DNA of 64,000 nt from Rhodospirillaceae bacterium. Lineage in GTDB: Bacteria > Pseudomonadota > Alphaproteobacteria > UBA6615. The position numbers and the translations under genes are program-made. Under the pieces are notes generated by a model. That model saw only the letters and a list, made by a program, of their open reading frames with translations. It made no database searches and was not told where the DNA came from. The stretch is taken from the NCBI GenBank assembly GCA_002713365.1, contig PASR01000011.1, positions 342,110 through 406,109 of the forward strand. Direction: 5' to 3'. This document shows positions 34,463 through 57,089 of the stretch, piece by piece; the first letter of the stretch is position 1, and each line of letters begins with the position of its first letter.

Positions 34463-35143
34463 CTATTTAGCATGTAGTGCTTTTGTGATTTCTGCCATAA
34501 TAGAGATTGCAATTTCTGCAGGGCTTTTTGATCCAATATCTAGTCCTATAGGGCCATGTATTCGTGAAATTTGATGTTCATCAAATCCAGAATCTTTTAA
34601 CCTTTCTTTACGTTTTAAATGGGTGTTTTTGCTACCTAGAGAACCAATATAAAAAGCATTTGATCGAAGTGCAACTTCTAGAGCTGGATCATCTAATTTA
34701 GGGTCATGGGTTAATGTTACAACCGCCGTTCTATTATCCACTCCCAGTGATATAAGAGCTTCGTCTGGCCAATCTTCATTCAGATCAACGTTTGGAAATC
34801 TAGAGCCAGTAGCAAAGGCTCCTCGTGGGTCAACAATTGTTACTGAAAACCCAGCAGTTTTACCTATCTCTACAAGAGGTTGAGCTATATGAACTGCACC
34901 TACGATTATTAGACGTTTAGGCGGATTAAAAACTTGGATAAAAACCTCACCGTTGCGTCTACTGGAGTCATCACTAAGTGAAGCTCGAGCCAATTCAGCA
35001 ATATCGTCTGTAATACTTAATAAACCGCTAACTCTATCTTCGTAGACAATGCATTGATTACCCGTTTTTAATTCAGAAACTAACGCTATAGGTTTTTTGT
35101 TCTCTATAGCTATCAATATTTCATTTAGTATCTTTTTGTTCAT
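34463..35143 (-). CDS. xdhC: XdhC/CoxI family accessory protein, C-terminal Rossmann-like domain
   Basis: 226 aa. LIIVGAVHIAQPL...TIVDPR is typical of the XdhC C-terminal domain. Confidence 0.75.
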   Translation of the reverse strand: MNKKILNEILIAIENKKPIALVSELKTGNQCIVYEDRVSGLLSITDDIAELARASLSDDSSRRNGEVFIQVFNPPKRLIIVGAVHIAQPLVEIGKTAGFSVTIVDPRGAFATGSRFPNVDLNEDWPDEALISLGVDNRTAVVTLTHDPKLDDPALEVALRSNAFYIGSLGSKNTHLKRKERLKDSGFDEHQISRIHGPIGLDIGSKSPAEIAISIMAEITKALHAK

Positions 35144-35149
35144 TGAAAT

Positions 35150-35497
35150 TTACTCAACTCGTTCCAAATAAACTTCAACTTTGCCACCGCACGCAAGTCC
35201 TACTTCCCAAGCCATTTCATCACTAACACCAAAAGAAAGTACTCTAGGTTTGTTATCATTCATTACTTCTTTTGCATTATGGACCACTGCGCCTTCTATA
35301 CATCCTCCGGATACGGAACCAATCATATTTCCGTCCTCATCAACACCTAATTGACTGCCAACTGGGCGAGGGGAGGAACCCCAAGTATTAATAACGGTAG
35401 CTATAGCTACTTCTTTACCTTCATTTCGCCATTTAGACACCTGTATAAGTACATCATCATGGCCATAATTTTTTGTATGTTTAAGGGTGTCATTCAT
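35150..35497 (-). CDS. xdhC: XdhC/CoxF family accessory protein, N-terminal domain
   Basis: 115 aa. XdhC_CoxI N-domain pattern (VAIATVINTWGSSPRPVGSQLGVDEDGNMIGSVSGGCIEGAV). Separated from the C-terminal ORF by a single in-frame TAA. Confidence 0.7.
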   Translation of the reverse strand: MNDTLKHTKNYGHDDVLIQVSKWRNEGKEVAIATVINTWGSSPRPVGSQLGVDEDGNMIGSVSGGCIEGAVVHNAKEVMNDNKPRVLSFGVSDEMAWEVGLACGGKVEVYLERVE

Positions 35498-37923: not shown

Positions 37924-38718
37924 CTAGGCAGCAGCTGCGGCACGGCTTGCCATAATTGAGATTAGGTGAGCCCTGTATTCTGCTGAAGCATGAATATCAC
38001 TATTTAGTCCATCTGCCGCTACTTTTACTGTCTTTGCAGCCGCTGCATCTAGATTATTCCCTAGTGCTTTCTCAATATCTGTTGCACGAAAGACCCCAGT
38101 GTCGCTTGCACCTGTAACCGCAGCTCTTGTTTCTCCATTAGTTTTTGCAACCATCACTCCCACAATTGCATAGCGAGAGGCAGGGTTCGGAAATTTTGCA
38201 TAAGCTGCTTTGTCTGGAATTGGAAACTTAACTGCTGTAACGAGCTCACCATCTTCTAGCGACGTTTCAAATAAATTTGTAAAAAAATCTTCTGCTGAGA
38301 TCTCACGATTATTTGTAATTATAGTTGCATTTAGACCAAGACACCCTGCTGGATAGTCAGCCGCTGGGTCATTATTTGATATCGAGCCACCTATAGTACC
38401 ACGGTTGCGAACCTGTGGGTCCCCTATATTACTAGCGAGTTCGGCTAAAGCTGGAATCTTAGATCTGACTATATCGGAATCGGCTACCGTTGCATGAGTA
38501 GTCATAGCACCTATGGTGATAGAGTCACCATTGTCGGTAACTCCGACCATATCTGCAATTTCAGATAAATCTATTAAGTCACTTGGTTGGGCCAGACGTT
38601 GTTTCAGGGTTGGAATTAGTGTCATTCCTCCTGCAAGATAGCTGCCGTCATCAGCTGATTGACGAGCAGAAATGGCTTCTTCTTGGGAATTTGCTTTCTG
38701 ATAATTGAAATTATACAT
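37924..38718 (-). CDS. coxM: Mo-hydroxylase FAD-binding medium subunit (CoxM/XdhB-like)
   Basis: 264 aa. FAD-binding-5 / CO dehydrogenase flavoprotein domains (AGGMTLIP, GTIGGSI). Confidence 0.85.
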   Translation of the reverse strand: MYNFNYQKANSQEEAISARQSADDGSYLAGGMTLIPTLKQRLAQPSDLIDLSEIADMVGVTDNGDSITIGAMTTHATVADSDIVRSKIPALAELASNIGDPQVRNRGTIGGSISNNDPAADYPAGCLGLNATIITNNREISAEDFFTNLFETSLEDGELVTAVKFPIPDKAAYAKFPNPASRYAIVGVMVAKTNGETRAAVTGASDTGVFRATDIEKALGNNLDAAAAKTVKVAADGLNSDIHASAEYRAHLISIMASRAAAAA

Positions 38719-38751
38719 AATTTTCTTTCCTAACGGATATGATAAAATATT

Positions 38752-41115
38752 TTATTGAGCTTTTTGGATGGCTTGCCATACTTTTAATGGTGAAGCAGGC
38801 ATTGATATATCACTAACACCCAGTGGGTTAAGAGCATCTAATATTGCATTTATAACTGCTGGTGGTGAACCAATAGCACCAACTTCACCTACCCCTTTAA
38901 CTTCTAGAGGATTAGAGGCTCCAAGAACACTTTGGGTGCTGACGTTAAAGTTAGGCATATTATCAGCTCTAGGCATAGTGTAATCCATATATGATCCGGT
39001 CAGTAGCTGACCAGATTCATCGTATACACAGCCTTCTAGCAAAGCCTGTCCTATGCCTTGGGCTAATCCGCCCTGTACTTGTCCTTCGACGATCATAGGA
39101 TTAATCACTCTTCCAACATCATCAACAGCAGTAAAGTTATTTATTTCTATCTCACCAGTTTCTGGATCTACTTCAACTTCACATATATGGCAGCCTGCAG
39201 GGAAACTAAAATTAAGTGGATCATAAAAAGCGTTTTCATCGAGACCAGGTTCAATTTCTTCAATTGGATAGTTATGGGGAACATAAGCTGCAAGCGAAAC
39301 TTCAGCAAACGATAGTTCCCGGTCAGTACCCGATATTTGGAAGACTCCGTCTTTGAACTCTACATCGGATTCTGAGGCTTCTAAGATATGTGCTGCTATT
39401 TTTTTTGCTTTTTCAATTATTTTATTGCATGCGTTTAATATTGCCGGTCCGCCGACTGCCATGGACCTTGAGCCATATGTGCCCATACCAAACTGAACCT
39501 CTCCAGTGTCCCCATGACTTATTTCTACTTGATCTACTTCAATACCAAAGCTTTCTGCAACTAGTTGTGCAAAGGTAGTTTCGTGGCCTTGTCCATGGTT
39601 GTGTGTTCCGGTGTAGACTGTAACAGAGCCCGTTGGGTGAACACGTACTTGAGCAGATTCATATAGTCCCGCTCTAGCTCCTAATGCCCCTGCAACTGCC
39701 GATGGTGCAATACCACAGGCCTCAATGTAAGTTGATATACCAATACCTCTACATTTGCCTCTAGATTCTGAATCGGATTTTCTATCTGCAAAACCTTCAT
39801 AATCAGCCGACTTTAATGCAGTATTGAAAGATGCTGGGTAGTCACCAACATCATATTGTAGAGCAACAGGTGTTTGGTATGGAAATTGATCCGATTGAAT
39901 CATGTTTTTCTTTCGAATTTCCACAGGATCTATTCCAGTTTCATTTGCCGCTTTATTAACTAGTCGTTCAAGCAAATAAGTACACTCAGGTCTTCCTGCT
40001 CCACGATAAGCATCAACTGGAACAGTGTTAGTAAAGACGGTCTTAACTTCACAATAAATATTAGGTGTGGTGTAGACACCTGCCATGAGTGTTGCGTAGA
40101 GATAAGTTGGAACACTTGAACCAAAAGTTGATAGGTAAGCTCCAATGTTCGCGTTGGTACTGACTCTTAGGCCTAAAAACCTGCCACTTTTGTCTAACGC
40201 TAAGTCAGCACTAGTCTCATGATCTCGTCCATGTGCATCAGTAATGAAAGCTTCTGATCTTTCAGCAGTCCATTTTATAGGTTGTGATACTTTCGCTGAT
40301 GCCCAGGTTAGTATTGCTTCTTCAGCATAATGAAAGATTTTAGAACCAAATCCACCACCAACATCATGAGATATTATTCGTAATTTGTGCTCGGGTATTT
40401 GTAACACAAATGCCCCCATCAATAATCGAATAACGTGAGGGTTCTGTGTGGTTGTATTAAGCGTATACTTGCCTGTAGCTGAATTATATTCAGCTACAGC
40501 AGCGCGGGGTTCCATAGCGTTAGGGATAAGTCTATTATTTACTACTTCAATTGAAACAATATGGTCTGCCTCTTCAAAGGCTGCGTCTGTTGACTCTTTA
40601 TCTCCTAACTCCCAATCGAAGCATATATTACTAGGAACATCATCATGCACTGGCAGTGCATCTTTGCTAAGAGAATCATTCATCATAATTGATGCTTTTA
40701 AAACCTCATAGTCAACAGATATTAGTTCAGATCCATCTCGGGCTTGCGCTTTTGTTTCGGCAATAACAATGGCAACCTGATCTCCCACATGGCGTACCTT
40801 TTCGAAGGCCATAGGTGGATGCGCGGGTTCATTCATAGGTGATCCGTCTTTATTATGTATTTGCCAGCCACACGGAATGCTACCAACTTCATCAGATGCC
40901 ATATCTGCACCAGTGAAAATTGCAATTACTCCAGGCGCTTCTTTAGCTTTTTTTATGTCAACACTTTTTATACGGGCGTGCGCGTGAGGAGAACGTAATA
41001 TCCAAGCGTATAATTGGCCCGGTTGATTAATGTCATCCGTATAATTTCCACGTCCAGTTAAAAAACGTCTATCTTCAACTCTTTTAACTGGGACACCGAT
41101 GCCGGTCTCGCTCAT
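38752..41115 (-). CDS. coxL: Mo-hydroxylase large subunit, form II CODH-like (CoxL-II); substrate uncertain
   Basis: 787 aa. The active-site loop reads AYRGAGR (form II signature), not the form I VAYRCSFR. Confidence 0.85.
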
Positions 41116-41124
41116 TGTTCTATC

Positions 41125-41592
41125 CTATCCTTGCATTGCCTTTGCACCAGCCAAAATAGATTTTACGATATTATGATAGCCTGTGCAGCGGCAGAGGTTT
41201 CCTTCAAGCCATTCGCGGACCTCTTGTTCGCTTGGATTGTTATTAGTACGCACCAAGTCAATAGCACTCATGACCATACCTGGAGTACAAAAGCCACATT
41301 GTAGACCATGATTATCCCTGAAAGCCTCCTGCATAGGATGCAGAGTATCTCCTTCTGCTAGACCTTCTATAGTAGAGACGTCTGACCCTTCGGCTTGCAT
41401 TGCTAACATTGTACAAGATTTTGCTGATTCACCATTCACGTGAACTACGCACGCTCCACACTGGCTTGTATCACATCCAACGTGAGTACCTGTTAGACCA
41501 AGATTTTCTCTTAAATACTGAACTAATAGAGTTCGTGGTTCTACTTCTGACGAAACAGATTTTCCGTTTACCGTCATTGAAACTGTGGGCAT
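41125..41592 (-). CDS. coxS: Mo-hydroxylase [2Fe-2S] small subunit (CoxS)
   Basis: Plant-type CxxxxCxxC and a second CxxC...C cluster motif. Start at the ATG at 41592 with strong SD GGAGGAAAAAG. Confidence 0.9.
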
Positions 41593-41759
41593 CTTTTTCC
41601 TCCGTCTAGTCGGGTCGCCCCGCGTCATTTCTTCCTAAAATATAAAATGTTCAGGAAAGATCAATTCATCAGTCTAAAGTTTCTTATTGATAGCCTCATA
41701 CGTCAAGGTGTTAATGAAGATTTTAATCTATCATTTATAATAATAATTATCATTATTAA

Positions 41760-42332
41760 CTAACCTGTTACTATAGCTAATACCACTACTGCTAATATAA
41801 TTACGCCGCCAATCCAGGTTCCAAGTCCAATTTCAGGTCGACCTATATCTTGTATATTATCAGATTTGGTAATTTTAGCATCGACGGAAGAACTATCAGA
41901 AACAATATCAGAAAAGTTAGTAAAAAATTCTCCAGCTAATTTTTTAGCTGTACCATCAATCAAACGAGCCCCAAGCTGTGCAAGTTTTCCTCCTACGGTT
42001 GCATCAACGCTGTAACTCAATATTGTAGAATCTCCATCAGATTCCAGGCTAACGTTTGCACCACCTTTTGCAAAGCCTGCGGCGCCCCCTTTACCTTCCC
42101 CACTTATACGGTAGCTATTAGGTGGATTGAGATCTGATAATGTTACTTGACCAGTAAATTTAGCTTTTACAGGCCCGACTTTAGCAACTACAGTAGCCGT
42201 CATTTCTGTTTCCGAAAGTCTATTTATCTCTTCACAACCGGGAATAGACTTTTTAAGAATTTCTGTATCATTTAAAGCGGCCCACACTTTTTCGCGGGAG
42301 GCTGCTATTCGATATTCGCCATTCATTTCCAT
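41760..42332 (-). CDS. coxG: CoxG family (SRPBCC) protein with C-terminal membrane anchor
   Basis: 190 aa. CoxG/polyketide-cyclase-like fold at the N-terminus and a hydrophobic helix at the extreme C-terminus (GTWIGGVIILAVVVLAIV). Confidence 0.75.
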   Translation of the reverse strand: MEMNGEYRIAASREKVWAALNDTEILKKSIPGCEEINRLSETEMTATVVAKVGPVKAKFTGQVTLSDLNPPNSYRISGEGKGGAAGFAKGGANVSLESDGDSTILSYSVDATVGGKLAQLGARLIDGTAKKLAGEFFTNFSDIVSDSSSVDAKITKSDNIQDIGRPEIGLGTWIGGVIILAVVVLAIVTG

Positions 42333-42631
42333 GGCGGTTCACCTTTCAAAATGGGGTTAATTAGATTACCTGAACATAGTGATGCAATTACAATCCAGCA
42401 AGGTTATTTGGCCATAACACGTCTAATTGATTATATATGTAATAATATCTATTGAACTAAGCTTGATATCTATCTTATACCAAATAAAATGATAGTGATA
42501 TTTTAAAAGTATTTTATACCTGCGACAAATTTGTTTTCATCCAATAGGTAATTATTATTTAATATAACAAATAAACACATATTATCAGTTATGTTTATTT
42601 ATTAGTAATTTTATAGTTTTAAGGAAACCTA

Positions 42632-43114
42632 GTGATTTATTTTTTTAGTGCTGTAGTTGTTACCTATTTATTTTGGATAATATTATCAGGACATTATACT
42701 GTTGTGTTGATGATTATAGGTGCTATCTCCTCAATATCTGTAGTAATAATAGCTAGCCGTATGGCTGCCATAGATAGAGAAGGACATCCAATCTATCTAC
42801 TAATAAGGGCAGGATGGTACTGGCCCTGGCTAATATGGCAAATTATAAAATCCGGTCTTAATGTGTCCCGTATAATTTTGTCACGTTCATTGCCAATTAG
42901 CCCAACTCTGATAAATGTTAAGGCTAACCAGAAAACTGTAGTTGGAATTGTTACTTATGCAAACTCAATTACATTAACACCCGGAACTATATCTGTGGAA
43001 ATAGAAGATCGGGACATTACCGTTCATGCAATAACCCTTGAAGGTGCATTAGATGTACAATCTGGAGAAATGGACCGAATGGTTGTTAAATTTGAGGGTC
43101 TTTCATCCGCATGA
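42632..43114 (+). CDS. mrpE: Mrp/Mnh-type antiporter subunit E
   Basis: 160 aa. MnhE hallmark SITLTPGTISV. GTG start. Confidence 0.75.
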   Translation: MIYFFSAVVVTYLFWIILSGHYTVVLMIIGAISSISVVIIASRMAAIDREGHPIYLLIRAGWYWPWLIWQIIKSGLNVSRIILSRSLPISPTLINVKANQKTVVGIVTYANSITLTPGTISVEIEDRDITVHAITLEGALDVQSGEMDRMVVKFEGLSSA

Positions 43115-43365
43115 TGTTCACTGTCGCTCTAATTGCAGTTTTGATTAGCCTAGTTTTAGCTATGGTTAGGGCAATAATTGGGCCAACAATGTTTGATAGG
43201 GTTCTGGCAGTTAACTCAACGGCTACGTTGGCAGTTCTATCCCTTGCATTAATCGGTTTTGTAGCCGGACGTCCAGAATTTCTCGATATTGCAATATTAT
43301 ATACATTATTAAACCTTATAGGCACGCTCGCGGTTCTTAGATATTTTCACCCTAACGAAAATTAA
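43111..43365 (+). CDS. mrpF: Mrp/Mnh-type antiporter subunit F
   Basis: 84 aa. GPTMFDRVLAVN motif. ATGA overlap with mrpE. Confidence 0.75.
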   Translation: MMFTVALIAVLISLVLAMVRAIIGPTMFDRVLAVNSTATLAVLSLALIGFVAGRPEFLDIAILYTLLNLIGTLAVLRYFHPNEN

Positions 43366-43368
43366 ATT

Positions 43369-43710
43369 ATGGAAGCTATTATAAATCTATTGAGTTGGTT
43401 GTTTTTACTCTCGGGTGGTTTGTTTTGTATTACCGGGATGATTGGCTTGATACGTTTTCCTGACCTTTTTACCAGACTTCATGGTGCGTCAGTAACCGAT
43501 ACCCTTGGAGCAGGGTTTATAGTAATTGGATTGATCTTGCAGTCGGGTTTTACATTAGTTACTGCGAAACTAATAATTATTATGGGATTAATACTCTTAA
43601 CTAGTCCAGTAGCAACACATGCCCTAGCACAAGCAGCTTTACATGCAGGTATCTTGCCAAAATTAGATAACGACGAAACAGGCGGTCATATTGCGGGGGA
43701 GGATGAATAA
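43369..43710 (+). CDS. mrpG: Mrp/Mnh-type antiporter subunit G
   Basis: 113 aa. GLIRFPDLFTRLHGAS motif. Confidence 0.8.
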   Translation: MEAIINLLSWLFLLSGGLFCITGMIGLIRFPDLFTRLHGASVTDTLGAGFIVIGLILQSGFTLVTAKLIIIMGLILLTSPVATHALAQAALHAGILPKLDNDETGGHIAGEDE

Positions 43711-43742
43711 TCGAACTCGTAACTGATACAATACTGCTACTT

Positions 43743-44273
43743 ATGATGATTGTTGCCGTTTATGGAATTATTCGTTCTCGCAATTTATTTGTAGTTGTAA
43801 TGCTTAGCGGCATTTATAGCTTTTTGATGGCTACTGTAATGGTAGTACTCGATGCAGTAGATGTGGCAATGACTGAAGCAGCCGTTGGAGCTGGTATGTC
43901 TACTGTTTTAATGTTGGCAGTCTTAGGTTTGGTTAGGTCAAGGGAAGCACCCTTGAGACATAGTCCTATACTTCCAATTATAGTATGTTGTCTTACAGGT
44001 GGCATGCTTATTTATGGAACAGTTTCTTTGCCGCCATTTGGCCATATAGATAATCCTCAGAATCAACATGTGGCTCCTTATTATATAGAGAATTCTGTTC
44101 GCGAAACCGGTTCTCCTAATGTAGTTACTGCCGTTTTAGCAAGTTATCGAGGCTATGATACACTTGGCGAAACAACAGTGATTTTCACTGGAGGCATTGG
44201 TGTATTGGTCTTACTTAGTGGTGTTATGACACGACGCCGCAGGTTTAATAATCAAAAGGAATCAGACGAATGA
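43743..44273 (+). CDS. DUF4040 / MrpB-related membrane protein (MbhD-like)
   Basis: 176 aa, 4-5 TM helices. Sits where Mbh-type clusters have MbhD. Confidence 0.55.
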   Translation: MMIVAVYGIIRSRNLFVVVMLSGIYSFLMATVMVVLDAVDVAMTEAAVGAGMSTVLMLAVLGLVRSREAPLRHSPILPIIVCCLTGGMLIYGTVSLPPFGHIDNPQNQHVAPYYIENSVRETGSPNVVTAVLASYRGYDTLGETTVIFTGGIGVLVLLSGVMTRRRRFNNQKESDE

Positions 44274-44719
44274 TGCGGGATACCATCATTCTGAGGGTAG
44301 TGGTAAAGCTATTATTACCGGTTATTTTGATCTTTGCCCTTTATGTACAGTTTCACGGAGACTATGGACCAGGTGGTGGCTTTCAAGCAGGTGTAGCTGC
44401 CGCTGCGGCGGTTATTTTATATGGTTTAGTATTTGGAGTATCAGCAGCACGCAAGGTAGTACCGCAAGGAATATTACTCGCTCTAATACCTCTAGGTGTA
44501 TTGATATTTGCAGGGACAGGAATTCTTAGCCTTTTACTTGGGGCAAATTATCTAGATTATTCTCCATTAGGCAGCTATCCAAAAGCTGGGCAACATCTAG
44601 GTATACTAATCGTTGAGGTTGGTGTGTTTGTTACTGTTTCATCCACAATGCTTGCTATATTTTATGCCTTTGGAGGAAGAGCTGAAGATGCCTTAGTTAG
44701 TGAAGAAGAAAACGAATGA
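44270..44719 (+). CDS. mrpB: Mrp/Mnh-type antiporter subunit B
   Basis: 149 aa. PGGGFQAG hallmark. ATGA overlap with the upstream gene. Confidence 0.75.
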   Translation: MMRDTIILRVVVKLLLPVILIFALYVQFHGDYGPGGGFQAGVAAAAAVILYGLVFGVSAARKVVPQGILLALIPLGVLIFAGTGILSLLLGANYLDYSPLGSYPKAGQHLGILIVEVGVFVTVSSTMLAIFYAFGGRAEDALVSEEENE

Positions 44720-45069
44720 CAGAAATACTAGCTAATTTAAATTATTGGGTAACAATAGTTTTAATGATTTCCGGACTATATATTGTTGCTGCACATGGAA
44801 ACATGATAAAGAAGCTTGTGGGTCTTAGTATTTTTCAGACCTCTGTGTATCTACTTTTTCTTTCCCCTGGTAAAATTTTAGGCGGTACGGCGCCAATTAT
44901 ATCAAAAGACTTTGATTTATACTCTAATCCTCTACCGCACGTATTAATACTGACAGCTATTGTGGTTGGAGTGGCTACTATAGCTTTAGGAATGGCTCTT
45001 GTTGTTCGAATTCATGAAGCATATGGAACAATCGAAGATGACGAAGTACATGATATGGAGAGGGAATAG
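44716..45069 (+). CDS. mrpC: Mrp/Mnh-type antiporter subunit C (NuoK-like)
   Basis: 117 aa, three TM helices. Confidence 0.7.
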   Translation: MTEILANLNYWVTIVLMISGLYIVAAHGNMIKKLVGLSIFQTSVYLLFLSPGKILGGTAPIISKDFDLYSNPLPHVLILTAIVVGVATIALGMALVVRIHEAYGTIEDDEVHDMERE

Positions 45070-46511
45070 TGAGCCAATTTCATATGCATTTACCCGCTCT
45101 TCAAGTGGTCATTCCTTTAATTGCTGCCGCTCTTTGTGCTTTATTTAGGCATTATTTTTTAGCATGGTTTATCACTATTTTGGCGAGCTGGTTATCATTT
45201 GCAATAGCTATATTATTATTATTACAAGTGATGAGTCGAGGAGTTATATCCTACGAACTAGGCGGTTGGGTTGCCCCAATTGGTATTGAGTATCGTATAG
45301 ATTTGTTAAATGCATTTGTTCTATTAATAGTTTCGGGGGTAGGCGCTGTTATAGTTCCCTATGCTCAGAAAAGTATATCTCAAAGTATAGAGAAATCTCA
45401 GCAGTCTTGGTTCTATTCAATGTATCTGATGGCTTTAACTGGCCTTTTGGGTGTTAGTATTACTGGAGATGCTTTTAATATTTTTGTCTTCTTAGAAATT
45501 TCTTCCTTGGCTAGCTATGTAATGATAGCCATGGGCCCTGATCGCAGAGGCTTAACAGCTGCATACCAATATCTTATTATGGGCACTGTTGGTGCAACAT
45601 TTATCGTCATAGGCATAGGGTTACTTTGGGCAATGACCGGTACGCTAAATCTTTATGATTTAGCGCAAAAAATTCCGCTCATAGAAAACTCACGTCCTGT
45701 TTTGGCGGCTTTGGCTTTTTTAACAGTGGGAATATCTTTAAAACTAGCTCTATTTCCATTGCATTTATGGTTGCCAAACGCTTATGCGTATTCTCCCGGG
45801 GTAGCGAGTGCCTTTCTGGCTGGTACAGCCACCAAAGTAGCTATATATCTCTTGCTTAGATTCTTTTTTACAGTATTTGGTGGCGTTGAATTTTTTCAAA
45901 GCACCCCTTTACCTGAAATTCTTTTTGTTCTCTCTTTGCTGGCCATGTTTGCTGCTTCCATTGTAGCTGTTTTTCAAAGTAATATTAAGAGAATGCTTGC
46001 TTATTCGAGTGTCGCACAAATTGGATTTATCACTCTTGGGATTAGTTATGCAACTGAAATTGGTCTGACTGGCGCTATCGCGCATATGTTTAATCATGCC
46101 ATCATGAAGGCGGGGCTGTTTTTACTAATTGGTGCTGTGATGTTTAGATTGGGATCGGTTAAAATTGAAGACATGGCAGGTATCGGGCGTAAAATGCCAT
46201 TTACTATGGCAGGCTTTGTAATACTAGGTTTAAGCCTTTTGGGAGCTCCTGGAACTGTAGGGTTTATAAGTAAATGGTATTTAGCTCTGGCTGCGTTGCA
46301 GGAAGGTCAGTGGTGGGCAGTTGCTCTTATAGTTGCAGCCTCTTTAGTCACTATGCTCTATATTGGTAGGGTGGTTGAGGTAGCCTATTTTAGAGAGCCA
46401 ACTGTAAAAGTCGATCAATTAAGAGAAGTACCTTCATCAATGCTTTTGCCTTCGTTCTTATTAGTTGGAGCGGCAGTATATTTCGGTCTTGATACCTCTC
46501 TATCTGTTTGA
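45069..46511 (+). CDS. mrpD: Proton-conducting antiporter subunit, MrpD/NuoM/N-like (copy 1)
   Basis: 480 aa, 14-TM NuoL/M/N fold. Confidence 0.8.
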   Translation: MSQFHMHLPALQVVIPLIAAALCALFRHYFLAWFITILASWLSFAIAILLLLQVMSRGVISYELGGWVAPIGIEYRIDLLNAFVLLIVSGVGAVIVPYAQKSISQSIEKSQQSWFYSMYLMALTGLLGVSITGDAFNIFVFLEISSLASYVMIAMGPDRRGLTAAYQYLIMGTVGATFIVIGIGLLWAMTGTLNLYDLAQKIPLIENSRPVLAALAFLTVGISLKLALFPLHLWLPNAYAYSPGVASAFLAGTATKVAIYLLLRFFFTVFGGVEFFQSTPLPEILFVLSLLAMFAASIVAVFQSNIKRMLAYSSVAQIGFITLGISYATEIGLTGAIAHMFNHAIMKAGLFLLIGAVMFRLGSVKIEDMAGIGRKMPFTMAGFVILGLSLLGAPGTVGFISKWYLALAALQEGQWWAVALIVAASLVTMLYIGRVVEVAYFREPTVKVDQLREVPSSMLLPSFLLVGAAVYFGLDTSLSV

Positions 46512-46564
46512 TTAGTTCAGCATATTGCTTCTTCACTTATTAGCGCAGCATATTAGGTGAAACT

Positions 46565-48079
46565 GTGAGCCCATATAGTATAATTATTGCCTCTCTTCTG
46601 ATACCGACACTCGGTGCAGTCTTAATTTGGTTATTTGGTCGACAAAAAAACATTCGAGAGACAGTAACTATAATAACTTCAGTTTTGTTGTTCTCTAATG
46701 TTGTTCAGATTTTACCTGCTATTAGTAACGGCGAGCGGCCAGAGTTGTTAGTATTAAATGTAGCTCCCGGCTTAGAAGTGGCTTTTCAAGTTGAACCGCT
46801 CGGAATGCTTTTCGCGTTAATAGCATCTTTCCTTTGGATTATTAATTCAATTTATTCAATTGGTTATATGCGAGGTAATAGGGAACCTCGACAAACCCAA
46901 TTTTATGTCGCTTTTGCTGTGGCGCTATCAGCCACGATGGGAATTGCATTCTCTGGCAATCTATTTACTCTATTTATATTTTATGAAGTTCTTACTTTAA
47001 GTACCTATCCATTAGTAGCCCATCATGGAAATGCAAAAGCTCGAACAGGAGGGCGTATCTACTTAATTATCTTGCTGGGTACTTCAATATTATTTTTTAT
47101 TCCAGCAATCCTTTGGACTTCTAGTTTAGCCGGCACTCTAGATTTTACTCCGGGCGGTATTTTGTCAGGAAAGGCAGATTCAATAACTACCGGCTTATTG
47201 CTGGCCTTATTTGCTTTCGGTATTGGTAAAGCTGCTTTGATGCCGTTCCATAAGTGGCTACCCAATGCTATGGTAGCCCCAACTCCTGTCAGTGCACTGT
47301 TACATGCGGTTGCCGTTGTTAAGGCGGGTGTTTTTACTATCCTTAAAGTATCTATATATATATTTGGTTCTGAACATCTTCTTGCTACCGGTGCTTCTGA
47401 ATGGCTAGTTTATTTAGCCACTTTCTCAGTTTTAGCAGCTTCAATTATTGCTTTAACCAAGGATAATTTAAAGGCAAGATTAGCTTATTCTACTGTAAGT
47501 CAGCTGGGTTATATAGTACTCGGTGCGGCGATTGCTACTCCTCTAGCCTTAATTGGTGCTGGAATGCATATACTTATGCACGCATTTGGTAAGATAACAC
47601 TTTTTTTTGTTGCTGGAGCAATACATACAGCAACGCATAAGACAGAAATTAGCCAGCTAAATGGTATCGGTCGCACGATGCCTTTTACTATGGTTGCTTT
47701 TTTTATAGGTGCTTTATCTATTATCGGACTACCTCCTTTGGGAGGCGCTTGGAGTAAAATGTATATAGCTCTTGGAGGAATGGACGGAGACTATTGGTTT
47801 GTGCTTGCCGCTCTTATGCTTAGTTCATTACTAAATATAGCGTATTTGATGCCAATTGTTATAAAGGCATTTTTTCTTCCGGCTGATTCAGAAAATAACA
47901 ATACGGAATTAGCGGAGATAAATGATAAATATGATAATAGTCTACGAAATCGTATAGCTGAAGCTCCTTGGTTTTGCGTAATACCTTTATGCTTCACAGC
48001 CTTAGCGTGTTTCATATTATTTTTTGCTCCTAATGCAGTTGAACAGCTTCTAAGCGGGATGTTAGAGAGGCCGTTATGA
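46565..48079 (+). CDS. Proton-conducting antiporter subunit, MrpD/NuoM/N-like (copy 2)
   Basis: 504 aa, NuoL/M/N fold. Confidence 0.8.
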   Translation: MSPYSIIIASLLIPTLGAVLIWLFGRQKNIRETVTIITSVLLFSNVVQILPAISNGERPELLVLNVAPGLEVAFQVEPLGMLFALIASFLWIINSIYSIGYMRGNREPRQTQFYVAFAVALSATMGIAFSGNLFTLFIFYEVLTLSTYPLVAHHGNAKARTGGRIYLIILLGTSILFFIPAILWTSSLAGTLDFTPGGILSGKADSITTGLLLALFAFGIGKAALMPFHKWLPNAMVAPTPVSALLHAVAVVKAGVFTILKVSIYIFGSEHLLATGASEWLVYLATFSVLAASIIALTKDNLKARLAYSTVSQLGYIVLGAAIATPLALIGAGMHILMHAFGKITLFFVAGAIHTATHKTEISQLNGIGRTMPFTMVAFFIGALSIIGLPPLGGAWSKMYIALGGMDGDYWFVLAALMLSSLLNIAYLMPIVIKAFFLPADSENNNTELAEINDKYDNSLRNRIAEAPWFCVIPLCFTALACFILFFAPNAVEQLLSGMLERPL

Positions 48080-48348
48080 GTGATAATTTTACCGAAGATA
48101 AAATATCTAATTCTACAGGTTGGTTAGCAAAAAAAATCAATAGTTCCAAGATTATATGGCTTTTATCTCTTATCTGTGTGTTTTTATTTGTGGCTGAATT
48201 CTTTGTTCACCGGCATGCAGAGATGGGAGTTGATGAATATATTGGATTTTATGGGGCTTACGGTCTTATAGGCAGTATCTTTCTTGTTTTTCTATCTCAT
48301 CAGATTAGGAAGCTTTTAAAGAGGCCTGAGGATTTTTATGATGATTGA
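48076..48348 (+). CDS. Small single-TM membrane protein, translationally coupled within the Mrp-like cluster
   Basis: 90 aa. Overlaps the upstream gene by 4 nt and the downstream gene by 11 nt. Confidence 0.45.
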   Translation: MSDNFTEDKISNSTGWLAKKINSSKIIWLLSLICVFLFVAEFFVHRHAEMGVDEYIGFYGAYGLIGSIFLVFLSHQIRKLLKRPEDFYDD

Positions 48349-50038
48349 TATTCCTCCTGGATTGATACTGATTTTAGGAGCCTTAATAGTACCGTTTCTA
48401 AAAGGTTATTTGCGAGGTGTATTTCTACTAGCTTTGCCTATTTTATCATCTTTCATTCTGTACAATCTACCGGATGGTAGCCATTTTGCTATTACCGCTT
48501 TTGGCCAGCATTTAGAACTTTTACGTGTAGATCCGCTATCGAGAATATTTGGTTACGTATTTTTAATCGCGATCTTCTTAGGCATAATTTATTCTTTGCA
48601 TCTACGTACCATAGAAGAACACTTATCAGGACTAATTTATTCTGGTGCGGCTATTGGAGCTGTTTTTGCTGGCGATCTCATATCCCTTTTTGTTTATTGG
48701 GAACTTACGGCAATATCATCAGTCTTTTTAATTTTAGCACGGCGTACACCAGAAGCACTGGCAGCGAGTATGCGTTATCTTATCATACAGGTTGGGTCGG
48801 GTGTATTATTATTAGCTGGTCTTATTATACGATGGAATGAGACAGGTAATATAACATTTGATCATATAGGACTCGAATCTGTCGGTGGTGTTTTAATATT
48901 TTTAGCATTTGGTATTAAGGCCGCATTTCCGCTATTGCATAATTGGTTGCAAGATTCATACCCCCAGGCCACGCCAACCGGAACTGTTATACTGTCAGCA
49001 TTTACGACAAAGCTAGCAATCTACGCCCTAGCCAGGGGCTATGCAGGCACTGAGGAGCTTATCTGGATTGGTACAATTATGGCTATATTTCCAATCTTTT
49101 TCGCTATAATTGAGAATGACCTGCGTAGGGTACTTGCATACAGTCTTAATAACCAACTAGGTTTTATGGTTGTAGGTATAGGCATTGGAACTGAGCTTGC
49201 CTTGAATGGAACTGCTGCTCATGCTTTTTCTCATATAATTTATAAAGCCTTATTATTTATGTCGATGGGGGCAATATTACACAGAACAGGAACTGTATTA
49301 GCTAGTGAACTTGGTGGCTTATATAAAACAATGCCATTCACAAGTATATTTTGTATTATAGGAGCGGCCTCAATATCCGCGTTTCCTTTATTCTGCGGGT
49401 TTATAAGTAAATCAATGATACTTTCTGCTGTAGCTTATGAAGGTCATTATTGGGTTTGGATACTATTACTATTAGCGTCGGCTGGTGTAATTCATTATTC
49501 TGCAATTAAGGTTCCTTATTTTGCATTTTTTGCAAATGATTCTGGCAAACGTCCAAAGGAGGCTCCTTTAAATATGTTGATTGCTATGGCATTGGCCTCA
49601 ATTCTTTGCGTAGGAATTGGTGTTTGGCCGTCTTCTCTTTTTTATATTTTGCCATTTGAAGTAAATTATATTCCTTATACTGAATCACATATACTGTCGC
49701 AGCTTCAATTACTCTTCTTCTCAGCCCTTTCATTCGCGGTATTGATAAAACTGGGTTTTTACCCAGTTCAATCAAAATCAACAATTATAGATACAGACTG
49801 GATATATCGCCGTTTAGCTAAGGCTGTAGTTGTTTTAATAACAAATGTGGCACTCACATTACATAGTAACCTTTTTGAAGTAACTATTTTACGGGCGCGC
49901 CGTCTAGTTGATCAACTTTATAAACATCACGGACCTCAAGGTATTTTAGCAAGAACTTGGCCCACCGGTAGTATGGTTTTGTGGGTAGCAATATTTCTTG
50001 GAATTTACTTACTTTTATACTTTATTAAAAATATATAA
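48338..50038 (+). CDS. Proton-conducting antiporter subunit, MrpD/NuoL-like with C-terminal extension (copy 3)
   Basis: 566 aa. NuoL/M/N fold plus an extra C-terminal region of roughly 150 aa. Confidence 0.75.
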   Translation: MMIDIPPGLILILGALIVPFLKGYLRGVFLLALPILSSFILYNLPDGSHFAITAFGQHLELLRVDPLSRIFGYVFLIAIFLGIIYSLHLRTIEEHLSGLIYSGAAIGAVFAGDLISLFVYWELTAISSVFLILARRTPEALAASMRYLIIQVGSGVLLLAGLIIRWNETGNITFDHIGLESVGGVLIFLAFGIKAAFPLLHNWLQDSYPQATPTGTVILSAFTTKLAIYALARGYAGTEELIWIGTIMAIFPIFFAIIENDLRRVLAYSLNNQLGFMVVGIGIGTELALNGTAAHAFSHIIYKALLFMSMGAILHRTGTVLASELGGLYKTMPFTSIFCIIGAASISAFPLFCGFISKSMILSAVAYEGHYWVWILLLLASAGVIHYSAIKVPYFAFFANDSGKRPKEAPLNMLIAMALASILCVGIGVWPSSLFYILPFEVNYIPYTESHILSQLQLLFFSALSFAVLIKLGFYPVQSKSTIIDTDWIYRRLAKAVVVLITNVALTLHSNLFEVTILRARRLVDQLYKHHGPQGILARTWPTGSMVLWVAIFLGIYLLLYFIKNI

Positions 50039-50079: not shown

Positions 50080-51906
50080 ATGAATAAAACTTATAAAAAT
50101 AAAAGTAAAAATAATTTTGCTTCGGGTAAAGAATGGAGTGTTATCCGTAAATTATTACCATTTTTGTGGCCTATCGGTCAGTGGGAAATGAAATTTAGAG
50201 TAGTAATAGCGATAATACTCTTGATTTTAGCAAAAATGGCTACTGTTGCAGTTCCTGCAGTTTTTGGAAAAGTAGTAGATCTACTGGATGCTTTAGGATC
50301 TGAAGAAGTGATCTTACCAATAGCACTTCTCATCGGTTATGGCTTACTCAGGGTTGGTCAACAGGGATTTGCAGAATTACGTGATTTTGTATTTGCGAGG
50401 GTGGGGCAAAGAGCTATTCGTCATATAGCACTGATTGTTTTTCGTCATCTGCATAGTTTGGCGTTACATTTCCATTTAGATCGTCAGACTGGGGGTTTGA
50501 GTAGGGCTATAGAGCGCGGAATTAAGGGCATAGATTTTTTACTTCGGTTTATGTTGTTTAACATACTGCCTACTCTTGTAGAAATTACTCTAGTTTGTGG
50601 AATATTATGGTCTTTATTTGGATTCATATTTAGTTTTATTACGCTAATAACTGTAGTTATTTATGTTGCCTTTACTCTTCTATTTACTGAATGGAGGTTA
50701 AAATTTAGGAGAGCTATGAATGAAAGCGATAACGATGCAAACACAAAAGCTATCGATAGCCTACTTAACTATGAGACCGTAAAATATTTTAGTAATGAAG
50801 AGCACGAAGCAAAAAGATATGATGCATCACTGATACGTTATGAAGGAGCGGCTGTAAAAAGTCTTACTACGCTGTCTTTATTAAATGTTGGGCAAGGCAT
50901 AATTATTGCCTTTGGTCTCACTATTCTGCTTATTTTAAGTGCAAAACGGGTCTCTATCGGAGAAATGTCGATTGGCGAGTTTGCTGCCGTAAACTTATAC
51001 ATGATGCAGCTTTTTCAGCCCCTTAATTTTCTAGGCTTTGTATACCGTGAAATACGACAATCTCTAGTAGATATGGAGTATATGTTTGGTTTATTAGAGG
51101 TTGAACGGGAAATAAAAGATAGAACTGAGGCCAAGGATTTATCAGTTAGTCATGGAGAAATACGCTATGAGAACGTTTCTTTCTCCTATGATAAAACTAG
51201 AGCAATACTCAAAGACCTTAACTTTGAGGTTTCCGCCGGCCGAAAGGTGGCCATAGTTGGAGCATCCGGGGCCGGTAAGTCAACTATTTCACGTCTACTA
51301 TTCAGGTTTTACGATGTTGATGCAGGAAAAATAACTATAGATGGGCAAGACATTAGAGATATAACGCAGTCTAGTCTTCGTGCATCGATAGGCATTGTAC
51401 CTCAAGATACAGTTTTATTCAATGATACCATCTATTATAATGTTCAATATGGTAGACCATCTGCTACTCCATCTGAAGTAGAAGAAGCAGCCCGCATGGC
51501 TCATATTCATGACTTTATTATAAGCCTACCAGATGGCTATAACACTAAGGTGGGAGAGCGGGGGCTGAAATTATCAGGCGGAGAAAGGCAAAGAGTTTCT
51601 ATTGCTAGGACAATTCTGAAGCAGCCAATAGTTTTATTATTTGATGAAGCAACATCAGCTCTTGATACAAACACAGAACGAGAAATACAGAAATCATTAG
51701 AGGATGTTTCGGCAGATCGAACTACACTTATAATTGCGCACCGTTTGTCTACAGTTGTTGATGCGGATGAGATATTAGTTCTCGATGGAGGATCAATTAT
51801 TGAGCGTGGTCGTCATGAAGTGTTACTAGCTGCGAAGGGCGAATATGCCTCTCTATGGGCTCGGCAACAAGAGGCTGAAAAACGTAATCTGCATAAGTTA
51901 GGCTAA
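50080..51906 (+). CDS. ABC transporter, fused permease/ATPase, ABCB/Atm1-HMT-type exporter
   Basis: 608 aa. K-rich N-terminus, six-TM domain, Walker A GASGAGKST, signature LSGGERQR, Walker B LLFDEATSALD. Confidence 0.85.
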   Translation: MNKTYKNKSKNNFASGKEWSVIRKLLPFLWPIGQWEMKFRVVIAIILLILAKMATVAVPAVFGKVVDLLDALGSEEVILPIALLIGYGLLRVGQQGFAELRDFVFARVGQRAIRHIALIVFRHLHSLALHFHLDRQTGGLSRAIERGIKGIDFLLRFMLFNILPTLVEITLVCGILWSLFGFIFSFITLITVVIYVAFTLLFTEWRLKFRRAMNESDNDANTKAIDSLLNYETVKYFSNEEHEAKRYDASLIRYEGAAVKSLTTLSLLNVGQGIIIAFGLTILLILSAKRVSIGEMSIGEFAAVNLYMMQLFQPLNFLGFVYREIRQSLVDMEYMFGLLEVEREIKDRTEAKDLSVSHGEIRYENVSFSYDKTRAILKDLNFEVSAGRKVAIVGASGAGKSTISRLLFRFYDVDAGKITIDGQDIRDITQSSLRASIGIVPQDTVLFNDTIYYNVQYGRPSATPSEVEEAARMAHIHDFIISLPDGYNTKVGERGLKLSGGERQRVSIARTILKQPIVLLFDEATSALDTNTEREIQKSLEDVSADRTTLIIAHRLSTVVDADEILVLDGGSIIERGRHEVLLAAKGEYASLWARQQEAEKRNLHKLG

Positions 51907-56659: not shown

Positions 56660-56736
<77 letters not shown>

Positions 56737-56783
56737 ACCCCCCCAATTTATGTGGGGACAATAGTTTTGAGAATGTAGGCAAT

Positions 56784-57089
56784 ATGAAAGCACGTATTTA
56801 TCAACCAGCTAAAACGGCCATGCAATCAGGACGAGCAAAAACTATTGAATGGGTGCTTGAATATGAACCAACTCGTCGACAACAGTTGGACCCTTTGACG
56901 GGTTGGTCTGGGTCTGGTGATACAATGTCGCAATTGCGGCTAACTTTTGAAAATATTACTGATGCTGTTGCTTATGCCACAAAGCATGGAATTGATTACA
57001 GTATTCAGAAGTCACAAGAACGTGTTATTAAGCCTAAAGCATATGCTGATAATTTTGCAGTTTCGCGTAAAATACCTTGGAGCCATTAA
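56784..57089 (+). CDS. NDUFS4-like (ETC complex I 18 kDa subunit family) protein
   Basis: MKARIYQPAKTAMQSGRAKT..WVLEYE matches the conserved NDUFS4 core. The track ORF began at 56676 and overlapped tRNA-Pro; the start was reset to the ATG at 56784. Confidence 0.75.
   Translation: MKARIYQPAKTAMQSGRAKTIEWVLEYEPTRRQQLDPLTGWSGSGDTMSQLRLTFENITDAVAYATKHGIDYSIQKSQERVIKPKAYADNFAVSRKIPWSH

Follow-up and report, generated by a model that had tools for sequence, protein, structure and literature searches.

What does an Mrp-like gene cluster with three pump subunits and no full-length mrpA gene do in a marine alphaproteobacterium? The question is raised by a stretch of 64,000 nucleotides of contig PASR01000011.1 from a Rhodospirillaceae bacterium (below, "the window" means this whole 64-kb stretch), whose map of open reading frames (ORFs) shows ten co-directional, closely packed genes on the + strand at positions 42632-50038. 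The original prediction, made from the letters of the DNA alone, had placed a ten-gene Mrp-like cluster at these coordinates, and both the ORF map and the Pfam assignments obtained for nine of the ten genes bear this out. Our analysis indicates that the ten genes probably encode one Mrp (CPA3) complex of Group 3, most likely a secondary antiporter which is driven by the proton motive force (pmf) and expels Na+ (possibly K+ or Li+). We favor this reading because of the family scores of the individual proteins, the classes of the three large subunits (D1, D2 and D3), their channel residues, the conserved order of the ten genes and the absence of any Nuo or hydrogenase module from the window.

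Gene content and order

Hidden Markov model searches with each ORF gave matches above the Pfam gathering scores for nine of the ten, including MNHE, PhaG_MnhG_YufB, MnhB, MbhD/MbhE, Proton_antipo_M and Oxidored_q2; the exception is a 90-aa ORF, here called X90. The cluster begins with mrpE (42632-43114, 160 aa, GTG start; MNHE, 91.6 bits, E-value 5.2e-26), which is also assigned to MNHE in the near-identical Tara contig L081, followed by mrpF (43111-43365, 84 aa; MrpF_PhaF, 54.8 bits, 1.3e-14) and mrpG (43369-43710, 113 aa; PhaG_MnhG_YufB, 88.2 bits, 4.3e-25; TIGR01300, 87.9 against a cut-off of 63.1). The fourth gene, mrpB in the naming used for Pyrococcus furiosus (43743-44273), encodes a 176-aa DUF4040 protein in which MbhD (residues 1-63; 60.6 bits, 1.6e-16) and MbhE (residues 99-159; 43.8 bits, 2.6e-11) are fused, and which scored 184 with PRK12504 (cut-off 141). 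Next come mrpB' of the MnhB/MbhF type (44270-44719, 149 aa; MnhB, 97.2 bits, 1.1e-27; PRK12508, 178 against 120) and the NuoK-like mrpC (44716-45069, 117 aa; Oxidored_q2, 70.2 bits, 1.3e-19; PRK07375.2-3, 125 against 95).

Three large antiporter-like subunits complete the set. D1, of the MrpD/MbhH/NuoN class (45069-46511, 480 aa; the gene caller's ATG lies at 45084), matched Proton_antipo_M with 214 bits (2.9e-63). D2, with an MrpA/NuoL-class core (46565-48079, 504 aa), matched the same family with 178 bits (2.2e-52) and Proton_antipo_N with 26 bits (8.4e-06; cut-off 24.5). The divergent D3 (48338-50038, 566 aa) reached 149 bits with Proton_antipo_M and 698 with PRK12668 (cut-off 564). X90 (48076-48348, 90 aa) is located between the last two; it shares 4 nt with the end of D2 and 11 nt with the beginning of D3. 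Curated NCBIfam equivalog cut-offs were passed by four of the proteins, namely the 176-aa protein (PRK12504, named "DUF4040 domain-containing protein"), MrpB', MrpC and D3, and therefore the NCBI pipeline would already name most of the cluster.

Overlaps of 1-11 nt, previously noted for nearly all gene junctions, join the genes at six of the nine, and at the remaining junctions the genes are 3, 32 and 53 nt apart. The longest gap, between D1 and D2, exists because D1 ends early. Compared to a 161-kb Tara Oceans marine-metagenome contig, to which the window is 99.93% identical with 16 differences, position 46509 reads T instead of G, which turns GGA into a premature TGA (46509-46511) and deprives D1 of its last 15 residues. 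Equivalents of 490 aa are found in 45 of 70 D1 orthologues. The TGA may stem from strain variation or from an error in the assembly, and we rejected the idea that the 53-nt gap is a regulatory spacer, as it is a product of this stop.

MrpB, C, E, F and G all have homologues encoded here together with an MrpD-type subunit carrying the conserved residues, as expected for the Mrp/CPA3 family, and with the MrpA parts treated below all seven kinds of Mrp subunit are represented. The absence of mrpA, the presence of several mrpD-type large subunits (480-566 aa) and a gene order other than ABCDEFG are the features by which Group 3 Mrp systems are defined (PMC8415708, PMC5703873). The order is colinear with mbhA-H, as had been predicted, and matches the published string (PMC8415708). 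The arrangement had also been thought undescribed, and here the prediction did not hold: it is the published Group 3 order, bacterial clusters of the form MrpEFGBBCDD or EFGBCD1D2D3 have been named, and at least about 580 such stretches exist. Therefore, the cluster is a further example of Group 3 Mrp, a subtype which is already named in the literature and is largely covered by NCBI curated models. To our knowledge, no one has yet purified its ten-subunit form, assayed it as a complex or solved its structure.

Three pump subunits and the parts of MrpA

We assigned the large subunits to classes by ranking their bit scores with solved chains and with NCBIfam models, by the Proton_antipo_N domain and by searching for similar folds. 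A search of all solved chains returned MbsH (6u8y_H), MrpD (7qru_D) and MbhH (6cfw_H) as the best relatives of D1 at 202-212 bits, with NuoN next, and D1 is by these scores an ordinary MrpD-class subunit. For D2, the top solved relatives were NdhF, NuoL, ND5 and MrpA, and among the NCBIfam models HyfD, MrpA and NuoL scored higher than MrpD. After transmembrane helix (TM) 14, D2 continues with a hydrophilic loop and one further TM; it has no long amphipathic or lateral helix. D3 is divergent in sequence, its top match to a solved chain being 128 bits. Its AlphaFold2 model, built from 51 homologues with a predicted local distance difference test (pLDDT) score of 80.3, shows a 14-helix core, TM15 (residues 449-471), two helices (486-509 and 517-531) and TM16 (543-565), and a Foldseek search with this model ranked MrpA chains (9a6h_A, 7qru_A, 6z16_A, 7d3u_A) and NuoL first. 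D3 is thus predicted to carry an MrpA/NuoL-like extension of TM15, lateral helix and TM16.

The remaining portion of MrpA appears to reside in the 176-aa protein. It aligns with residues 609-762 of MrpA from Dietzia (7d3u_A) and 653-802 of MrpA from B. pseudofirmus (7qru_A), as well as with MbhD, MbhE, MbsD and MbsE, and by these alignments it is equivalent to the C-terminal domain of MrpA (TM17-21). No ORF in the cluster encodes a full-length fused MrpA with pump core, lateral helix and MrpB-like C-terminal domain, and to this extent the earlier statement that MrpA is absent stands. However, since the 176-aa protein, the D2 core and the D3 tail match parts of MrpA, MrpA is split into three proteins rather than missing.

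A three-way alignment showed that D1, D2 and D3 all keep the TM5 Glu, the TM7 Lys, HxWL, the TM8 Lys, the TM11 His/Lys and the TM12 Lys, and the channel residues are invariant within the D3 family too. With three Proton_antipo_M proteins that retain these residues, the predicted trio of pump subunits is confirmed, and judged by the alignment all three look like working proton-channel modules.

A conserved small subunit between D2 and D3

In 77 of 80 related loci, tblastn detected X90 as an intact ORF located after D2 and before D3. It had been described as a single-TM protein; instead, it has two hydrophobic segments at about residues 20-48 and 55-74. Conserved motifs include W.D...N, C..L...D, single H and E residues, GFY..GF and R....R.EDYY. 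X90 has no match in Pfam or NCBIfam, and a profile search collected 3528 relatives, all unnamed or "hypothetical" and none with a Pfam domain. Compared with all PDB sequences, a 25-sequence profile gave only chance-level hits, the best being the V-ATPase K subunit (E = 0.1). Neither these profile searches nor those in Pfam and NCBIfam established an identity with MbhI or with TM15-16 of MrpA. Its conservation indicates that X90 is a real gene of a two-helix family which lacks a Pfam or NCBIfam model and looks unreported.

Conservation and distribution

A scan of a collection with one genome per species confirmed at least 582 D3 relatives among the 600 pattern matches listed. We surveyed gene neighborhoods in the best 80 of these at least 582 loci and scored the order where enough flanking sequence was available: E-F-G-B-B'-C-D1-D2-X90-D3 was kept in every adequately covered locus. 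The hosts belong to the Alpha-, Beta- and Gammaproteobacteria, Gemmatimonadota, Myxococcota, Acidobacteriota and Latescibacterota, with Sedimentitalea nanhaiensis DSM 24252, Microbaculum marinum and strain HTCC2150 as cultured examples. The ten-gene form is common in marine bacteria, being abundant in marine Alphaproteobacteria and also found in many further phyla, and the family assignments together with the recurring order are far beyond chance.

In two gammaproteobacterial loci, L043 (8185-11677) and L048, the D2-X90-D3 triad occurs alone, without E-F-G-B-B'-C-D1 nearby and next to genes for a TRAP transporter, an NMT1-like protein and an ion channel. These lone triads suggest a modular build of a seven-gene core and a three-gene extension.

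Proposed function and the transported cation

From the solved Mrp, MBH and MBS structures, we infer that the subunits would line up in the order E-G-F-B'-B-C-D1-D2-D3. D3 would be located at the far end, with its lateral helix and TM16 clamping back over its neighbors, and X90 may pack against D2 and D3. Protons would enter by three channels, and the cation would leave via the module of small subunits. A third pump subunit would raise the H+ per Na+ ratio, which could be helpful to a marine bacterium at about pH 8 and 0.5 M Na+. It has been argued for the Dietzia structure that more proton-pump subunits help at alkaline pH or against steep gradients (PMC7733839), and the coupling ion of the P. 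furiosus mrpEFGBB'CD system is Na+ (PMC8415708).

Several observations weigh against Na+ expulsion by a single ten-subunit complex. The arrangement of the subunits, the position of X90 and the stoichiometry are all matters of inference, and we know of no transport assay for the ten-subunit type. Confidence is low (pLDDT 42-69) for the part of the D3 model that contains the lateral helix, as expected if this part forms a clamp which packs on neighboring subunits. The frequent Cox and nuo/atp neighbors described below hint at a closer respiratory tie than a housekeeping antiporter needs. Finally, MrpF deviates at a position which stands out in the sequence comparison. Column counts over 63 orthologues showed that P25, D29-R30 and D59 are invariant in the family, and that residue 35 (43213-43215 in the window) is Asn in 61 of them. 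The aligned residue is Asp in MbhB, MbsB and all three solved MrpF chains, and corresponds to D36 in TM2 of Dietzia MrpF, an essential residue: a D36N exchange abolished activity in Dietzia, while an equivalent D-to-N-like change was tolerated in Bacillus (PMC7733839). The use of Asn in place of Asp in MrpF looks unreported.

The family-wide Asn may reflect an altered cation path, and the same complex could transport another cation, for example in K+/H+ exchange as by S. meliloti Pha1 or Ca2+/H+ exchange as in Thermomicrobium, or it could normally run in reverse and use the marine Na+ gradient to expel protons or support the pmf. Cation specificity does differ among characterized Mrp systems (PMC5703873), and the P. 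furiosus Group 3 Mrp has been proposed to import Na+ and export H+ at low pH (PMC8415708). However, most Mrp systems tested, including a cyanobacterial one of Group 3, extrude Na+; surface seawater is mildly alkaline and rich in Na+, which favors Na+ extrusion; and three proton-channel subunits suit the high H+/Na+ ratio of uphill Na+ export. A different cation or direction seems unlikely to us.

Cox genes next to the cluster

The cluster had been called stand-alone. This holds with respect to hydrogenase and complex I modules, but a complete coxG-S-L-M operon starts 300 bp upstream on the opposite strand. The operon (37924-42332, - strand) is divergent from mrpE and comprises coxG (41760-42332), whose product has a C-terminal TM anchor, coxS (41125-41628) and coxM (37924-38718), both identified with Pfam and NCBIfam, and coxL (38752-41115). 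With the motif AYRGAGR at residue 369 rather than the AYXCSFR of form I, CoxL is of form II; it is not called a true carbon monoxide dehydrogenase because it scored 649 with TIGR02416 (cut-off 991). The 299-bp intergenic region between coxG and mrpE (42333-42631) presumably holds the promoters of both operons, and one promoter-like consensus match was found there on the + strand (42463-42490); the promoter and terminator scan gave consensus-level matches only, some of them spurious within genes, and was not relied on. Between 32128 and 37723, still on the - strand, the cox operon goes on with genes for a MoxR-type AAA ATPase, a VWA protein, an XdhC homologue divided between two ORFs (35150-35497 and 34463-35143) and a fusion protein with a MobA-like cytidylyltransferase; this part is broken by a YCII gene on the + strand.

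CoxG or CoxS was encoded in the fetched flanks of 29 of 57 evaluable Mrp-centered loci, distributed over many branches of the D3 tree. A form II CoxG operon adjoins the Mrp genes in about half of the sampled genomes (loci L001, L002, L004, L006, L012, L026, L031, L047, L051, L059, L070, L087, L112 and L157, besides the window), and at least three arrangements occur. The operon can be divergent and upstream at 250-350 bp, as in the window and in L001, L002, L004 and L006, or co-directional and downstream, 37-67 bp after D3 in L012, L026, L031, L051, L059 and L070 and 2 bp after D3 in L157; in a Parvibaculum-type strain, coxG begins about 60 bp beyond D3. In the third arrangement, found in L089 (1-10441), Mrp is divergent from a form I coxM-S-L operon, with mrpE on the - strand ending at 2219 and coxM at 2913; its CoxL carries AYRCSFR at about 5460 and is a bona fide CO-dehydrogenase-type enzyme, and coxG follows further downstream. 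Of the eleven loci in which the sequence extends over the motif, nine have AYRGAGR in the adjoining CoxL, and in 21 of 23 loci the CoxG protein carries a C-terminal TM anchor. On these sequence features, the Mrp-adjacent Cox enzymes form one subfamily.

One explanation is that the Mrp complex translocates ions in partnership with a Cox-type molybdenum dehydrogenase which is anchored in the membrane: CoxSLM would be held by CoxG on the complex or next to it, and oxidation of CO or another substrate would be coupled to, or coordinated with, Na+/H+ movement. The cluster would in this case be a membrane arm whose input module is of a novel type. The frequency of the neighbors, their several arrangements across the D3 tree and the shared AYRGAGR motif and TM anchor speak for such a link, as does the lack of any other recurrent neighbor family: an all-against-all comparison of 795 flank ORFs revealed, beyond Cox, only lineage-specific synteny of an NMT1-type ABC importer, an ABC exporter and a cold-shock protein. 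On the other hand, a NuoH/B/D-like coupling module is absent. Cox is missing from the vicinity of half of the Mrp-centered loci, including all sampled Rhodobacteraceae, the betaproteobacterial loci and all non-proteobacterial phyla. Conversely, a CoxG-centered metagenome scan found an Mrp cluster in only four of the 17 loci with a full upstream flank; Cox therefore does not need Mrp, which speaks against obligatory coupling. Moreover, the spacing varies from 2 bp to 8 kb, co-regulation explains the adjacency equally well, and a full-text literature search returned no report of such a link. We consider the partnership improbable, and its more specific form, in which the three-pump Mrp works with form II (in some lineages form I) Cox enzymes with CoxG as the tether and acts as an Mrp-based energy converter with a molybdoenzyme partner, more improbable still. 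The Cox link is nevertheless a real genomic association, which may reflect co-regulation or a shared physiological setting.

Other surroundings and the orphan-arm alternative

A second type of respiratory neighborhood was found in two Latescibacterota genomes, OZ242180 and OZ220733. In L077 (739-20570) and L080, the ten genes are inserted into a nuo operon in the same orientation, with nuoL/nuoM on one side and a nuoN-like gene on the other, and genes for the a, alpha, gamma and beta subunits of an F-type ATP synthase follow. The literature search returned no report of a nuo-embedded association either, and this variant as well as the Cox adjacency look unreported.

Genes for NuoB, C, D, H or I, for MbhM-like proteins or for hydrogenases are absent from the window and from the recurrent flank families of the 80 loci, in agreement with the original prediction, and the window also lacks the complex I membrane-arm genes for NuoH, NuoA and NuoJ. 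The oxidoreductase which does adjoin the cluster recurrently, form II Cox, is not of the hydrogenase or complex I kind that would make the cluster a membrane arm. That the cluster is an orphan membrane arm of an Mbh/Mbx/complex I-like enzyme with its catalytic module encoded elsewhere in the genome is, despite the colinearity with mbhA-H (PMC8415708), the closeness of D1 to MbsH and the two nuo-embedded clusters, the least probable reading, as no such module is present in the window or recurs in the flanks, the redox module of MBH replaces the N-domain of MrpA (PMC7733839) at the end where MrpA-like D2 and D3 are present here, and the cluster is self-contained in many phyla.

Downstream of D3, an MsbA-like ABC exporter with fused transmembrane and nucleotide-binding domains (50080-51906, + strand, 608 aa) starts after 41 nt, with no terminator-like site between. 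Homologues were found by tblastn downstream of D3 in about eleven loci, mostly relatives of the window, and the exporter is possibly co-transcribed with the Mrp cluster. We had also considered a DabA/DabB-type CO2 pump and rejected it, the downstream 608-aa gene being the ABC exporter. Further downstream, a small stand-alone gene (56676-57089, + strand) is annotated in the matching contig with an NDUS4 (complex I NDUFS4-like) domain and is apparently unrelated to the Mrp cluster.

The cluster is of wider relevance in two respects. The three pump modules, the split MrpA, the unannotated small subunit and the MrpF Asn bear on the coupling between proton channels and the movement of cations or charge in Mrp and complex I. 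Furthermore, the Cox adjacency and the nuo insertion in Latescibacterota, if functional, would link ion homeostasis with the oxidation of trace gases in the ocean.

Comparison with known systems

The cluster shares with the membrane arm of complex I a triad of antiporter-like subunits, the distal one with a predicted lateral helix and a terminal anchor helix, and a NuoK-like subunit; in contrast to complex I, it has no NuoH, NuoA, full NuoJ or peripheral arm and includes MrpE, F, G and B. The predicted lateral helix of D3 spans about 45 residues, that of NuoL being longer. MBH and MBS (6CFW, 6U8Y) are more similar in that their membrane genes are colinear with the cluster and MbsH is the closest solved chain to D1. 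MBS moreover has a second antiporter-like subunit, MbsH', with TM15-16. The NiFe-hydrogenase-derived module MbhJKLMN of these complexes has no counterpart here.

Mrp systems of Groups 1 and 2 (A. flavithermus, 6Z16; B. pseudofirmus, 7QRU; Dietzia, 7D3U) share all subunit types, the channel residues and the D-R motif of MrpF, and MrpA has the fold closest to that predicted for D3. They differ in having one MrpA of 800-960 aa with two pump modules, whereas the parts of MrpA are three proteins here and the pump modules number three. Moreover, their genes run from A to G rather than E-F-G-B-B'-C-D, and at the position of Dietzia D36 our MrpF has Asn. The same inventory of subunits as in our cluster is encoded by Ehrlichia chaffeensis, in which F, G, a 181-aa DUF4040 protein, B and C lie in a row and three D-like proteins (489-519 aa) and E are also present; all of these antiporter genes complemented an antiporter-deficient E. 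coli (PMC8395091). The Ehrlichia genes are, however, scattered over several loci and were assayed singly and not as a complex.

According to PMC5703873, which summarizes Fukaya 2009, the mrpCD1D2EFGAB operon of Aphanothece halophytica confers Na+/H+ antiport in E. coli. As described there, its short "MrpA" consists of the C-terminal domain only, it has more than one D subunit, and its order is a cyclic permutation of the present one; the operon begins at another gene and has two large subunits rather than three, and that summary reports no X90. Closer bacterial relatives are probably of the same type as our cluster: MrpEFGBBCDD of the Solemya velum symbiont (PMC4287430), Mnh/MrpEFGBCD1D2D3 of Verruconatronum (PMC13274419) and the cluster of Nitrospira alkalitolerans with extra NuoM/NuoL-like genes after mrpD (PMC7784846). 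Their order and multiple D subunits match, as judged by the published gene strings only. These three papers give the clusters as annotation only and do not mention the small two-helix subunit, the reading of MrpA as split or Cox neighbors.

The most instructive comparison is with the stand-alone Group 3 Mrp of P. furiosus, mrpEFGBB'CD, whose MrpB likewise fuses MbhD with MbhE (PMC8415708). The first seven genes are in identical order, and neither operon contains a full-length mrpA or a redox module. The Pyrococcus system is archaeal and has a single antiporter-like subunit, whereas in our marine alphaproteobacterium D2, X90 and D3 are added, which restores an MrpA/NuoL-type core and a subunit with a lateral helix. 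By its gene order and family assignments, the cluster thus looks like a Pyrococcus-like EFGBB'CD1 core to which a D2-X90-D3 add-on supplies MrpA-like functions.

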